Positions 44,930-50,505 of a stretch of 64,000 nt of DNA are shown here, in pieces. The first letter of the stretch is position 1, and each line of letters starts with the position of its first letter. Location: positions 39,600 through 103,599 of the forward strand of contig CALVXM010000001.1 in the NCBI GenBank assembly GCA_944371305.1, written 5' to 3'. The notes beneath the pieces were generated by a model. It had not been told where the DNA came from. It saw nothing but the letters and a program-made list of their open reading frames with translations, and made no database searches. The stretch is from an uncultured Bacilli bacterium (GTDB taxonomy: Bacteria; Bacillota_I; Bacilli_A; RF39; UBA660). Position numbers and translations under genes: made by a program.

Positions 44930-45346
44930 CAATAAATTAGACAGAAAAAATGTGGATATGCAATTACTCCACCAAAAACAAGTAATTCAAATAGTATTAT
45001 AGATTTAGATGATAACTTAATAACAATTTTAAAAAAACATTATGAAAAAGAAAGTAAAATATATAGTTTTAGTAAAAATATGTTTATTTTTGGTAATGTC
45101 AGATTTTTAGCTCAAACTACTTGTAATAATAATTTAAAAAAATATGTAAAAAAAGCTAATGTCAAATACATAAGTCCACACGGTTTTAGACATTCCCACG
45201 CAAGTTTGCTTATTAATTTAGGTTGTGATAGTTATGATGTTGCACAACGTCTAGGTGATACTCCAAAAATAGTAGAAAATACATATTATCATATGTTTAC
45301 TAAAAAGAAAAAACATACTTTGGAATTGTTAAACAATTTAAAATAA
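44930..45346 (+). pseudogene. Remnant (C-terminal catalytic part only) of a tyrosine recombinase/phage-type integrase
   Basis: In-frame ..LITILKKHYEKESKIYSFS..ISPHGFRHSHASLLINLGCD..DTPKIVENTYYHM (R-H-x-x-R ... Y catalytic residues) with no N-terminal domain; upstream frame broken by stops. Confidence 0.6.
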
Positions 45347-45372
45347 GTGGTAATTAGGAGGTAATTATTTCA

Positions 45373-45402
45373 CGACATATTAAAACCCTTATAAAATAAG
45401 GG
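45373..45402 (+). terminator. Intrinsic terminator after the integrase remnant
   Basis: Hairpin cccttataaaataaggg then T5. Confidence 0.55.
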
Positions 45403-45598
45403 CTTATTTTTATATGGAGCGTATAAAGAAGAAGTCGAATAACTTTTCTTACGCCAATAATCAGGTAAGTAATAACTACTAACTAGTAAAATTATATCAC
45501 AACATTTACATTTTGAAACAAAAAATGTCTAATTTTACATTGAAATTATGAAAAATTCAAGAAATATGCTATAATTAATATGATTGGAGATGATTTAT

Positions 45599-46033
45599 AT
45601 GAAAGAAAATATCGATTTAGGTGCTGCAATTGAAAAAATTCAAAATTATGCTATCAACTCTTTTCAACCTAGTTATGTTCGTGCAGATAGTAAACCAGCC
45701 GATGTTGCAAAATATTCTGACTTTATAGAACTACCACATGATATAATTGACCAAGTTCCAGATGTAATCTTAAAAGTATATGGCGAAGAAAAAGGTGCTT
45801 TGGAATGGAAGAAAATTGCAACAGCTGTCTTCAAATTAACAGTAGTATCTGATGTACGTGTTGAAGTAACTAGATTAATGCGAGCTCTTTTAGCAGTATG
45901 GGACGAAGAACGTAAATTTATGTATAAAGGAAAAGATGGAAAAGACTATACTTCTTTTGAACAAGTTAGGTCAGTAAATGAATTTTATGCACAACAAGAA
46001 AATCCTACAATAGAACAAGGAAGAAGTAGATAA
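45599..46033 (+). CDS. Hypothetical protein (cargo ORF 1 of the mobile element); start at ATG after a GGAG Shine-Dalgarno
   Basis: Intact ORF with good RBS; no recognisable motif. Confidence 0.5.
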   Translation: MKENIDLGAAIEKIQNYAINSFQPSYVRADSKPADVAKYSDFIELPHDIIDQVPDVILKVYGEEKGALEWKKIATAVFKLTVVSDVRVEVTRLMRALLAVWDEERKFMYKGKDGKDYTSFEQVRSVNEFYAQQENPTIEQGRSR

Positions 46034-46052
46034 AAACTATAGGAGATTATAT

Positions 46053-46925: not shown

Positions 46926-48182
46926 TTATATGTCTATATCAAGGTCATCATAATCTTTATCATAACCATAGTTTTGTTCATAGATATAATCATTTATTTC
47001 ATCTTCTCTAGGTGTGCCATCTGCTATATCGTGTAAATCTCTATCATTATAATAATCTAGTTGATGATATGAAGTAATTTCTTTAACTATATCATCTTTA
47101 TCTTTTTCAGTTCCTATATGGAGCAATTTATTAAAGAACTTTTTTAAAGTTTGGAGCATTACATTTAAGAAGTTATGTAGTCTTCGATTTTCTTTTTGTA
47201 GTTCTTCGTTTTTATGTTCTAGCTTTCTAACTTCAACTTCTACATTATGCTTTTCTCGTTCCATTTCACGATATTTTTTAGTATAGTCTTCTAGTTCTTT
47301 AAATAATGCTTGATTATTTGGCATATCTTTAATTACTCTTTTTGAGGTATTCATAAAATCTTTAAGTGTGTCATAAGTTTCTTTATCAATTTTAACTTCT
47401 TTACCAGTAATTGTAGGTTTAGAAGTTTTTAATTTTTCTTCTAGTATTCCATAATCTCTAGTCATAAGATAATTTTGTTTTTCCATACGATTATCTAGTT
47501 TTCTTGTAAGTTTTTTAAATTCTTTAATAGAGATATGTTCGTTGTCACTATTTTTAATACCTCTTTCTAACTTAAAACCATTATCATTCATTCGTTTCCA
47601 ATACTTATCTTGAAGTTCACTAATATATTCGCCAGACTTCATATAATACTTTTTAGAAATAGTATATTTTTCTGTATTAGTTCTTTTATCAAACTTTTTA
47701 ATTAAAGGAACAACTACACAATGCAAATGTGGTGTTTTTTCGTCCATATGAACGACACTATGTAAAACTTGTTCTTTTGTATAACCTAAATCTTCATAAA
47801 CGAAATCCATACAAGAATCTGCCCATTTTTTTATTTCTCTTTTACTCATATTTTTAAAGAATTCATTATCACTAGTAAACATTAATTCATCAGCAACAAC
47901 GCTATTTGAATCATCTAGCATTTTATCAAATGACTTTCTTCGATCTTCTCTTGTTGTTTTTTGCTTTTCTTCATATTCTTTTTTATATTCTTTAACTAGT
48001 TCATAATAACCTTTGGAATATCTTTCATTTAAAGGAACAATTTCTATATTATTTTTTGACTTTGACATATCTATATCAGGATTAGATTTATAAGATTTTT
48101 TATCTCTTTTGTTATGAGCACCGATTTCGCCTAAATCTTTAAGTGTATTTATCGATTCACTTCTAAATATTGCATAACTCAT
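46926..48182 (-). CDS. mob: Plasmid recombination/mobilisation relaxase, Pre/MobV (Mob_Pre) family
   Basis: N-terminus [27 protein letters not shown] matches the Pre/Mob family start (MSYxVxRxxKxK...HNxR); 3H motif region HLHCVVVP; coiled-coil C-terminus. Confidence 0.75.
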
Positions 48183-50031
48183 TATCTCTTAAAACCTCTC
48201 TAACTTTCTCGAAATAACCTTTATAAACTTGTTTACCATTAGGAGCAATCACATTAGTTAAATCTATTGTAATTACTGCAAGTTGTAAATTTTTATTTTT
48301 ATCAAATTTATCTTTGTCTAGAGCTATAAGTCTTATTATCTTTTCTATTTCACAAGTGCTTGGAAATGTTATATCTTTTAAATCATCATCAGTATCTATT
48401 TCATAATAATTAAGTTTATAATCACTTCCTAGAGTAGTGCATAATTTATCAAAATATTTTCTAGCATTTTCTTTTGTTTTTGCTTCCCAATTCATACGAA
48501 GTGGATAACCATAATCATCTTCAAAAATATTGAAGTTATAAGGTGTCCCATACATAACATGATTATTTCTCATATCTGCTAAAAATGATTCTCTAAAATT
48601 ACCACTAGTTATATTTATTTCTTTATCTTTCTTTTCTATTTCGATAAAGTCGATATATTTAGCAAATAACTTTTGTTTCTTTTCTCTAGGTGTATTTAAC
48701 CATTTATTTAAGTTAATAAAGAATAATTCAGGTTTAACAAATTCATCTATTTGTTGTTTATCTTGTAATATAAGTAAATCATCAACTGTGAAACTTAAAT
48801 TTTCATATTGTTTTTGTTCTTGATATTTTTTAGTTAAATTATTTTTATTAAATTCAATTTGCTTTATTTCATTCTCAAAATCTTCAATTTTTAAAATACC
48901 TTTGATATAAGCATTTTTAATTCTATCTAGTTGTTTATCAAGTTCTTTAATTTCTTTATCATAATCAATTTGTTTATTATCTAATTTTGACTTAATAAAT
49001 GGTGTATAGTAATCATTGATAAGTTCATCTTGTTTATTTAATTCAATTAAGAAACCTTTTAATTGTTCTTCAATATCAATTTCACTAAAATAAGTTTTAC
49101 ATTTCTCACATTTGTAGTAATAATATTTTATACCATTCTTTTTAGTGGTAGCACTTCCACCTAGAAAACAACCACATTTAGAACATTTAAGTTTATTAGT
49201 AAATAGATATGTTGCTGTTCTTTCATAATGTCTTGCATTTCGTTGTTTTTGATATTGGCAATCTTCCCATTTTTCTTTACTAACTAATGGTTCAACGACA
49301 TTTTCATAATATGTAGGGTGTTTTGTACTTCTTCCATGCACATAATCGCCTTTATAAATCTCATTTGTTATCATTCTACTTATTGTTGAATCTAACCAAT
49401 TTGTTTTACCTAAAACTTTTTCTTTGTTATAAATATTAGCAATAGTTTGATAACTTTTACCCTCTAAATATAAATCATATAATCTAACTATTATGTCTTT
49501 TGTTAAAGGATCGGGTATCATTTTTTTATCTATTCGTTGATAACCTAAAGGTAAAGGTCCTGGAATATGACCTGCCTTAATGGCTCCGACAAGTCCAAAT
49601 TTAGTTCTTTCAGAACATTTTTCTATTTCATTTTGACTTACACTAGTCATTATTCTCATAACCATTCTACCATTTGAAGTAGTAGTATTAGATTCATCAG
49701 CCATACAATCAATATCACATTCATAATCATTAACAAACTTCATAAGTTTTTCAATATCAAAAACACTTCTTGTTAATCTATCTAGTTTAAAAGCAACAAT
49801 TACATTTATTTTTTTATCTTTAATATCTTGTATCATTTCTTGATACGCTGGTCTTTTATCATCTTTTGCACTTATTCCTTCATCCGCATATACTTTATAG
49901 ATTTCATAACCTTTGAATTTACAAAACTCTCTTAATTTTTCTTCTTGTTCTGGTAAACTAAAACCCTCTCGTTTTTGGTCTAATGTTGAAACTCTTTTAT
50001 AAATACCTGCAATTTTCTTTTCTTCATTCAT
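48163..50031 (-). CDS. Large serine recombinase (resolvase/invertase N-terminal catalytic domain, recombinase domain, zinc ribbon, extended C-terminus), TnpX/TndX/Ccr-like
   Basis: Catalytic Ser motif [12 protein letters not shown], ..DRLTRS.., Cys4 CSKCGC...CEKCKTY; 622 aa. Confidence 0.85.
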
Positions 50032-50058
50032 AAATTATCATCTCCTTTTCTTCAAAAA

Positions 50059-50104
50059 AAGAGGTGTCAAAAGTATTAAGCAACTAATACTACTGACACC
50101 TCTT
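50059..50104 (-). terminator. Strong stem-loop (11-bp stem, nested palindrome in loop) plus T7 immediately upstream of the serine recombinase RBS: putative read-through insulator / attenuator
   Basis: aagaggtgtca...tgacacctctt with T-run then GAAAAGGAGA then ATG on the minus strand. Confidence 0.5.
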
Positions 50105-50229
50105 AAAATCTAATTTAGAATAATATTTACTTATAAATACGAATCTCATACTATTTTTCCCCCTAAATAGACATAAGTCTTCTTGGCTGATTATTCTATC
50201 ACTTTTTTAAGAAATGTCAAATCATTGGC

Positions 50230-50505
50230 TTAAAAATGGCTTTTAATGTGATTTTCAAAGTCTTTAAACTTTATTTTTTCATTATAGCCATTAACAAATA
50301 TGTCATCACATTCATCAAACATTAAATATTCAATATTATTAACTTTAATAATATGTGGTTTTACATAAGCAATATTTGTTCCCTTAATACTTTTAATATT
50401 TCCATTTGTAATAGTAGGTTTAGCACAAGCAAACTTACAAATCATTTCAACCTTTCTTTTTAGTTCAATACTTATCTCTAATTCTTTAGTTTCTATTGTT
50501 AACAT
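50230..50505 (-). CDS. Hypothetical 91-aa protein between recombinase and tRNA-Gly
   Basis: ORF only; no motif. Confidence 0.35.
   Translation of the reverse strand: MLTIETKELEISIELKRKVEMICKFACAKPTITNGNIKSIKGTNIAYVKPHIIKVNNIEYLMFDECDDIFVNGYNEKIKFKDFENHIKSHF

Follow-up and report, generated by a model that had tools for sequence, protein, structure and literature searches.

A mobilisable element in an uncultured Bacilli bacterium whose large serine recombinase probably integrates at tRNA and tmRNA gene ends

The transposon Tn4451 is known for its GA joints, for a promoter that is formed at the joint, and for carrying TnpV, TnpW and TnpY together with catP. SCCmec cassettes insert at the 3' end of a conserved housekeeping gene, where they form arrays of elements. 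Low target specificity and 2-bp joints are described for Tn4451 (review PMC5704250), and reviews of integrative and mobilisable elements (IMEs) list serine integrases only for insertions within protein genes or of low specificity (PMC5704250, PMC5357655). One published statement is that serine integrases do not specify tRNA genes (PMC4383910), and a large survey of large serine recombinases (LSRs) mentions tRNA 0 times (PMC10083194). The tycheposons of Prochlorococcus are small, site-specific, tRNA-associated elements, 27 of 937 of which have an LSR in place of a tyrosine recombinase (bioRxiv 10.1101/2020.12.28.424599). Here we describe a locus in a 64,000-nucleotide stretch of DNA from an uncultured Bacilli bacterium (contig CALVXM010000001.1; the window, in the coordinates of which all positions are given). 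We consider it quite probable that positions 45415-50602 are an intact, recently mobile IME of 5.2 kb, whose LSR integrates at the ends of tRNA and transfer-messenger RNA (tmRNA) genes through a half-site on the tRNA side, with a crossover that includes the discriminator base N73.

The ends of the element were read by comparison with an empty site. Conspecific contigs without the element (L100, L101, L102 and L108) were found through the neighbouring GltX protein, and in three of them (L100, L101 and L108) the junction was read as ...CACTTGCTCCA/TATAAAAATAAGCCC, where the slash marks the joint. The window has ...CACTTGCTCCA/ATATGATAGG at attL and ...TATACGCTCCA/TATAAAAAT at attR. The first base of the element is the one that follows the CCA of tRNA-Gly(GCC), and its last bases are ...CGCTCCA; homology among copies ends at window positions 45407-45414 on the far side. 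The right end of the window element, ...TATACGCTCCA/flank, recurs in L005, and that of L004 is ...TATACGCACCA/flank. The tRNA-Gly gene is intact, and its portion from the T-arm to CCA is the conserved left arm of attB. Alignment to a relative lacking the insertion, which had been suggested in a first-pass annotation made from the sequence alone, thus gave exact ends. It replaces the span proposed there (44930-50230), bringing a 91-aa open reading frame (ORF) into the element and leaving a tyrosine-integrase fragment outside. A search for direct and inverted repeats over 44.3-50.8 kb returned chance AT-rich matches only; it missed the true core because 6 bp is too short.

The annotation had also kept open that the LSR might be the integrase of a prophage or of an island larger than the element. 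The LSR does match a PHROG 'integrase' family (6e-106), and six IMG/VR contigs classed as viral (L119-L124), which may be host flanks of proviruses or elements within phages, contain CCA followed by the left-end motif. That PHROG family, however, is a generic LSR family, the insert holds no phage structural or replication genes, and the empty site limits it to 5188 bp, which leaves this explanation with a negligible probability.

In conspecific contigs the same tRNA-Gly attB is empty, or occupied by the window element, or occupied by a different LSR element (L099, L104), and the right ends seen there in L017 and L018 are of yet other kinds. Because conspecific contigs carry the empty site, the element is recent and mobile. 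The tRNA-Gly site is a hotspot of polymorphism, and the ancient fixed remnant that the first-pass annotation had named as its possible undoing can be dismissed. The different element (L099:12733-21644, and L104) is larger than that of the window. It encodes a 94-aa ORF and a 596-aa LSR with 30% identity to the window LSR, and in addition TnpV (PF14198), a NikA-like protein, an N6/N4 methyltransferase, a helicase and an HSDR_N-like protein, which may be defence cargo.

The order of genes at the empty site is tRNA-Gly, integrase fragment, a 116/120-aa ORF and AddB. As the integrase fragment lies there directly by the tRNA, the LSR element is a separate, later and precise insertion. About 126 residues remain of the integrase, which is kept at the empty site in L100-L102 and L108 and is shorter in L018; full-length integrases of its type have roughly 350 residues or more. 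The remnant is the leftover of an older tRNA-Gly-associated element and part of the native flank. Its origin had been recognised in the earlier annotation, which nevertheless placed it within the element and supposed it overwritten, whereas the insertion is a clean one between CCA and the remnant. One might still picture a single old tRNA-Gly island, brought in by the tyrosine integrase and fixed in the lineage, with the LSR and the relaxase as cargo or as a decayed passenger, since an integrase remnant adjoining the 3' end of a tRNA gene is the classical arrangement. The empty site refutes this, the same LSR element is found at other tRNAs without any tyrosine integrase, and the integrase is truncated, to different extents in the window and in L018; we give this history hardly any weight. 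Nor is the element of the Islander type: the sole tyrosine integrase is truncated and lies outside it, and the repeat is 6 bp. A 120-aa membrane ORF that separates AddB from the integrase fragment (window 44366-44728, minus strand) has faint similarity to membrane proteins of integrative and conjugative elements (DUF2976 / TIGR03745, E ~0.005) and could be another leftover of the old island.

Scanning one genome per species with the window LSR yielded 80 related loci at 59-99% identity. Most are recorded as coming from Bacilli, 'Tenericutes' or Mycoplasmatota of the gut that are uncultured, among them Candidatus Faecisoma merdavium. Every left end that adjoins an RNA gene starts directly after CCA (54/54). 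The targets comprise 14 tRNA species (Leu-TAG/CAA/GAG, Cys-GCA, Thr-GGT/CGT, Gly-TCC/GCC, Ala-TGC, Phe-GAA, Arg-CCG/ACG and Lys-TTT/CTT) and, in five of these 54 cases, tmRNA. Left ends that are not at RNA genes lie at a contig edge or in tandem, after the ...C-N-CCA right end of another element.

Near-identical copies are found at different sites. The 91-aa protein of the window has exact matches on 20 other contigs, always beside the LSR and in differing surroundings, and the copies concerned start after the CCA of Gly-GCC, of two different Cys-GCA genes, of Leu-CAA, or of a tRNA ending in ...GGCACCA. Copies that are 94-99% identical to the window element follow tRNA-Cys, tRNA-Leu(CAA) and the ...GGCACCA-ending tRNA. 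A second group, the L030 type, is 99.2-99.8% identical over 4.1-4.9 kb and sits at Leu-TAG, Leu-CAA, Ala-TGC and tmRNA, and one identical LSR protein (P0134) is found at tmRNA and at tRNA-Leu(TAG), in three genomic contexts.

Tandem arrangements were also seen. On a 1.19-Mb contig (DAJPHG010000001.1; L057:3076-15400), tRNA-Gly(GCC) is followed by at least four tandem elements, each ending in ...C-T-CCA, and another LSR relative of the family lies at tRNA-Leu(CAA) on the same contig (L088). In L004 (4894-5760), a segment of ~850 bp with one 191-aa ORF directly follows attR, between the bounds CCA/TTGGGAAATCTGTTCGAAC... and ...GGCACCA/GATTGATAGATAAC, and looks like a short recombinase-less element in a tandem array.

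What the targets share is limited. Over 48 unique targets, the only invariant positions are G53 T54 T55 C56 R57 A58 n T60 C61 and C72, A or T at 73, C74 C75 A76. The T-loop box (GTTCRAnTC) and C72-N73-CCA stand at fixed spacing in all targets, and naive flanks downstream of the tRNA have nothing in common. The stretch common to attL, attR and attB is 5-6 bp only. Since attL and attR are unlike at position 71 and again right after A76, the exchange lies within C72-A76. The attR base equivalent to N73 equals the tRNA discriminator in all 19 two-ended elements (7 T, 12 A), and it switches among close relatives (L004 versus the window; L034 versus L030). At the tmRNA target of L033, attR reads GGGCAC/AAAATT, without CA. 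A tandem joint in L079, listed as a right end without an NCCA terminus, reads GGGCAC/TAGATTG, with TA replacing CA. As read from the sequence, the window attP (TTCGACTTCTTCTTTATACGC-TC-CAATATGATAGGAAACTCGAA) forms an inverted repeat, TTCGA...TCGAA, which is imperfect and has its centre at T73-C74.

The discriminator match, L033 and the L079 joint point to a 2-bp overlap containing N73, most likely N73-C74, and not to one inside CCA. Had the same enzyme exchanged strands inside CCA (at C74-C75 or C75-A76), the N73 match would be a mere similarity of the arms. This would suit the invariance of CCA in attL and in nearly all attR, and the C-N-C-C-A identity block does not by itself fix the exchanged pair; but it leaves unexplained a match in 19 of 19 elements with switches in close relatives, an attR without CA, a tandem joint with TA for CA, and a centre of symmetry at T73-C74. 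We therefore hold exchange inside CCA to be rather improbable. A target-site duplication of the DDE type, considered as a source of the repeated C-N-CCA, was rejected: there is no transposase, and attR of L033 lacks CA.

On this basis we propose that the LSR inserts the element at the 3' end of tRNA-Gly(GCC) in such a way that the tRNA stays whole, the element supplying hairpins and a terminator behind it. The enzyme would read the conserved half-site on the tRNA side, leave the downstream half free and exchange strands at the 2-bp overlap containing the discriminator, N73-C74 being the likeliest pair. It would follow that T in the attP core leads to U73 tRNAs (Gly, Cys), and A to A73 tRNAs and tmRNA. 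With each integration, attR would again end in ...C-N-CCA and attL would become a full palindrome, so that tandem arrays could build up. Should the element excise, the expected products are an attP of ...TATACGCTCCAATATGATAGG... and an attB of ...CACTTGCTCCATATAAAAAT.... For the LSR family at large, which is widespread, we see about an even chance that it has evolved to recognise something universal in tRNA-type genes, a T-loop box that is always equally far from discriminator-CCA, that strand exchange at a dinucleotide with the discriminator lets one enzyme serve many tRNA genes as well as tmRNA at their exact ends, that one attP base sets the U73 or A73 class, and that the 91-aa protein, the attenuator and the NCCA-ended right end (see below) are parts of the system.

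In cases where attR is followed by another element's left end (L004, L019, L021, L031, L047, L051, L070, L093 and others), this flank contains YCGAAC at about +14 to +19, the T-loop box in inverted form. The attL of a resident element is therefore fully palindromic. Such an attL may be favoured as a target, and the arrays would then be explained.

Several points weigh against the reading of a mobile IME with this target rule. For both the window type and the abundant P0134 type, JGI metagenome contigs and IMG/VR gave 0 matches to an attP joint, whether of a circle or of a self-tandem. No conjugative helper was identified for the element, and most loci are in metagenome-assembled genomes. The T-loop box would appear conserved in any set of tRNAs, and the TTCGA motif is missing from the P arm in some subfamilies. 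L033 is a single locus that could be a 2-bp deletion, the N73 match depends on few independent switches, and the overlap could alternatively be C72-N73. With no excised circle or attP joint found, we infer excision rather than observe it; mobility is read from the empty and occupied alleles and from the near-identical copies at different sites.

The recombinase itself was correctly named as a 622-aa LSR in the first-pass annotation. Its Resolvase catalytic domain (Pfam E 3e-33, 115 bits, cut-off 23) has the nucleophilic serine, with the motif Y-x-R-V-S-T and S15 invariant in 23 relatives, and is followed by a Recombinase domain (E 5e-18, 65.8 bits, cut-off 21) and by zinc-ribbon CxxC pairs. 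The zinc ribbon, also claimed earlier, is present as CxxC...CxxC conserved among relatives, but the Zn_ribbon_recom match is weak (18.5 bits, below the cut-off of 25.3; E 0.0026). An AlphaFold2 (AF2) model of the C-terminal 195 residues was of low confidence (predicted local distance difference test, pLDDT, 58.6) and was left unused. The best NCBIfam models are CcrB and XisF (~130 bits each), the CcrB match (3e-38) being far under that model's 900-bit cut-off. Against the window LSR, the TnpX N-terminal domain (2mhc) scores 29 bits and the TP901-1 integrase 76 bits. By these similarities the LSR stands nearer to CcrB, to XisF and to the TP901-1 type than it does to TnpX. It is the sole recombinase among the genes of the element.

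These results bear on the Tn4451-like identity that the first-pass annotation had assigned to the locus, in which a TnpX-like recombinase at the element end is promoted from the circle joint, joints are GA, targets are loose and the tRNA is a mere neighbour. An LSR and a Pre/MobV relaxase do lie side by side as in Tn4451 and Tn4453, the outward promoter at the right end could read over a circle joint towards the 91-aa ORF, and a TnpV homologue occurs in the different LSR element at the same site (L099). The ends, however, are at the tRNA CCA and ...CGCTCCA and not at GA, RNA-gene junctions are at tRNA or tmRNA ends in 54 of 54, the recombinase scores favour CcrB, XisF and TP901-1, and TnpV, TnpW and TnpY have no Pfam or NCBIfam match in the window element. 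The LSR starts 571 bp from the tRNA 3' end (the annotation had the right tRNA gene at ~370 bp, without seeing in it the target) and lies behind its own promoter, leader ORF and terminator. Having a sigma-70-like promoter of its own, it needs none formed at a circle joint. A Tn4451/Tn4453-type transposon is thus a very unlikely description of the locus, whose features are collected in Table 1.

Table 1. Positions of the element, its att sites, genes and predicted signals in the window
Feature	Position	Strand	Remarks
Whole integrated element	45415..50602	-	5188 bp, shared GCTCCA counted once; from empty-site comparison
tRNA-Gly(GCC), integration target	50603..50677	-	ARAGORN; Rfam tRNA 59 bits; same in empty site
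attL core GCTCCA (G71-A76)	50603..50608	-	putative crossover dinucleotide T73-C74 = 50606-50605
Left end of element (P' arm), ATATGATAGGAAACTCGAAC..TTCGAGAG	50567..50602	-	identical in copies after other tRNAs
Weak terminator-like hairpin (CTAACTA/TAGTTAG) and T7	50533..50557	-	read from sequence
91-aa partner ORF	50230..50505	-	travels with LSR; part of element
Sigma-70-like promoter for LSR leader, TTGACA-16-(TG)TAGAAT	50193..50220	-	11/12 matches; position kept in relatives
Leader ORF MRFVFISKYYSKLDFKRCQ-stop with Shine-Dalgarno sequence (GGGGG)	50090..50149	-	stop codon in 5' arm of terminator hairpin
Terminator hairpin and T7 directly before LSR ribosome-binding site	50054..50102	-	minimum free energy of leader -38.7 kcal/mol, z -3.95
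LSR, 622 aa	48163..50031	-	Pfam domains
MobV/Pre relaxase, 418 aa	46926..48182	-	overlaps LSR by 20 nt
Candidate oriT	46826..46877	-	just after mob; inverted repeat, then hairpin AAAGGGAATACTCCCTTT
Two cargo ORFs (149/144 aa, 190 aa)	45584..46625 (45584-46033; 46053-46625)	+	differ between copies
Promoter-like site for cargo ORFs (extended -10)	45548..45575	+	
Structured right end (P arm of attP)	45419..45499	-	37 right ends compared
attR core GCTCCA	45415..45420	-	putative crossover T-C = 45418-45417
Native-flank hairpin (B' arm region), directly after attR	45386..45402	.	
Tyrosine-integrase C-terminal remnant	44957..45346 (ORF 45080-45346)	+	outside element; Pfam positions 105-169 of 172; frame traceable to ~44957

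The gene set is that of an IME: an integrase and a relaxase with a candidate oriT of its own, no mating-pore genes, and bounding att sites, in agreement with the mobilisable LSR and MobV element of the first-pass annotation, which had also named the Pre/MobV relaxase and an oriT. The relaxase scores above the cut-offs of both Pfam Mob_Pre (105 bits, cut-off 25.5) and NCBIfam MobV (115.5 bits, cut-off 100), and it matches the structure of MobM of pMV158 (4lvi, E 4e-16). The candidate oriT starts with the inverted repeat CACAC(TTCT)CTATTGGC-AGA-GCCAATAGGTGTG at 46877-46845 (in short, CACAC...TATTGGC-AGA-GCCAATAGGTGTG). Its architecture is like that of IR3 in the oriT of pMV158, which is nicked at the 3' end of the right arm (PMC5863519). 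It is kept, with changes, in the mob-bearing subfamily of the L030 type; some subfamilies are without mob altogether (L058). For transfer, MobV would nick this candidate site downstream of mob, and the element would borrow the mating pore of another element.

Between the element end and the LSR lie the 91-aa ORF, two hairpins, and a promoter followed by a leader ORF and a terminator. The left end includes a hairpin at 50569-50589 and has the consensus gattGATaggAAaCTCGaaC over 20 unique ends; read in reverse complement (GTTCGAGTTTCC) it resembles the T-loop box. The window-type right arm also holds TTCGA. The weak hairpin that follows would stop read-through from the tRNA ahead of the 91-aa ORF. 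This ORF has 578 homologues, none with a Pfam match or an annotation, and the AF2 model of its protein (pLDDT 94.8) gave no convincing fold match. In L099, whose LSR is only 30% identical, a small ORF of distant similarity occupies the corresponding position. Our guess is that the 91-aa protein is a candidate cofactor or directionality factor.

The hairpin and T7 reported as an insulator upstream of the LSR ribosome-binding site in the first-pass annotation were found again, at 50102-50054. They belong to a layout of promoter, leader ORF of 18-25 codons with a strong Shine-Dalgarno sequence, stop codon in the terminator hairpin, T-run and LSR ribosome-binding site that is the same in 38 of 60 distinct LSR upstream regions. 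We take this unit to be a putative translation-sensitive attenuator, in which a leader peptide with its stop codon within an intrinsic terminator would gate LSR expression. A search of the element against Rfam (E<=1) returned the tRNA only; neither the hairpins of the right end nor the leader of the LSR matched a family.

The right end of the element starts with an outward extended -10, TGATATAAT, at 45499-45491, followed by a near-invariant hairpin 1 (45486-45461) and by hairpin 2 (45456-45419), and it finishes in a C72-like C, T and CCA. The sequence of hairpin 2 varies by subfamily, its stem stopping just before N-CCA. The right end folds better than shuffled sequences on both strands (z -2.6 and -2.3), a stability that is not strand-specific, and RNAalifold found partial covariation only on the right-end alignment. 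It may act as a small RNA, as a protein site or as a signal in single-strand DNA; if an RNA, the hairpin-rich end finishing in NCCA is possibly one that resembles an acceptor/T-arm minihelix. We rejected the idea that the outward promoter restores the downstream tRNAs of an operon, as a same-strand tRNA lies within 400 nt in only 1 of 31 right ends (L020); the two downstream tRNAs of L087 are on the opposite strand. The two cargo ORFs have no family match in four libraries, and L004 and L006 carry a 233-aa ORF in their place.

Metagenome contigs often break at or near the ends of the element: L013 stops at the window equivalent of 50604 and L001 starts 253 nt before the LSR. Such breaks are expected of a sample with occupied and empty alleles or with several copies. 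The GC content of 45-50 kb (0.23-0.27) exceeds that of the AddAB flank (0.17-0.22), as the first-pass annotation had said of both flanks, but it is like that of the other flank and the window mean (~0.26). Elsewhere in the window, a 279-aa BclA-like collagen-like protein with GxT/GPT triplet repeats (4725-5564, plus strand) explains a GC spike (0.42) at 5-6 kb in a window otherwise at ~25% GC, and a 6S RNA gene (Rfam RF00013, 67 bits) lies at 56738-56919 on the minus strand.

In the searchable literature, from which subscription journals are largely absent so that an earlier description is possible, we found no account of one LSR using many tRNA genes at discriminator-CCA. There, tRNA and tmRNA genes are almost only tyrosine-integrase territory, and a serine family at tRNA ends changes this picture. 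A serine recombinase at an RNA gene has precedents in the ssrA islands of Dehalococcoides and in a minority of tycheposons. The family also explains the tandem arrays that small elements form behind tRNA genes in abundant gut bacteria that are uncultured and have reduced genomes. The site is apparently set by one conserved half-site and a 2-bp core with the other half free, a different mode of target finding. LSRs are the main tools for the insertion of large DNA, and one directed to a motif that every bacterial genome contains many times, and whose target class changes with a single base, could aid the engineering of uncultured or non-model bacteria.

Among described systems, Tn4451/Tn4453 (TnpX and TnpZ) share with the window element the format of a small IME with one LSR, a MobV/Pre relaxase, an oriT-like site and a borrowed conjugation pore. 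The window element differs from them in its target at tRNA/tmRNA ends, the discriminator in its joints instead of the GA dinucleotide sought in the first-pass annotation, an LSR distant from TnpX, and the absence of TnpV, TnpW and TnpY. To SCCmec, with CcrAB or CcrC, the link is CcrB as best NCBIfam similarity, but the SCCmec target is the protein gene rlmH/orfX, whereas the window element has a single recombinase, a relaxase and an RNA-gene target. The ssrA islands of Dehalococcoides (CcrB-like DsiB with DsiA; PMC3146451) likewise have a serine recombinase at the 3' part of tmRNA, form tandem arrays and have been proposed to be IMEs. Their sole target is ssrA, their direct repeat measures 20 bp, they insert in the T-loop and they have two recombinases (PMC3146451), while the window element has one LSR, a core of 5-6 bp at discriminator-CCA and many tRNAs plus tmRNA as family targets, and so does not belong to the ssrA islands.

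Tyrosine-integrase elements of tRNA 3' ends (NBU1, IME_Sag2603_tRNAlys and Islander-type islands) similarly keep a conserved, essential RNA gene active and accrete in tandem, but with another enzyme family and chemistry, a tDNA fragment of tens of bases and specificity for one tRNA. Tycheposons are overwhelmingly of the tyrosine-recombinase kind, live in other hosts and have no Mob, and the accessible part of their description contains no LSR att sites or multi-tRNA LSR. The 'multi-targeting' LSRs (PMC10083194) also use many genomic sites with a short common motif; in the window family, by contrast, the many sites fall into a single structural class, that of tRNA and tmRNA gene ends. Membership among IMEs, LSRs and MobV relaxases is thus familiar ground, and it is the target rule at tRNA/tmRNA ends that is unusual.

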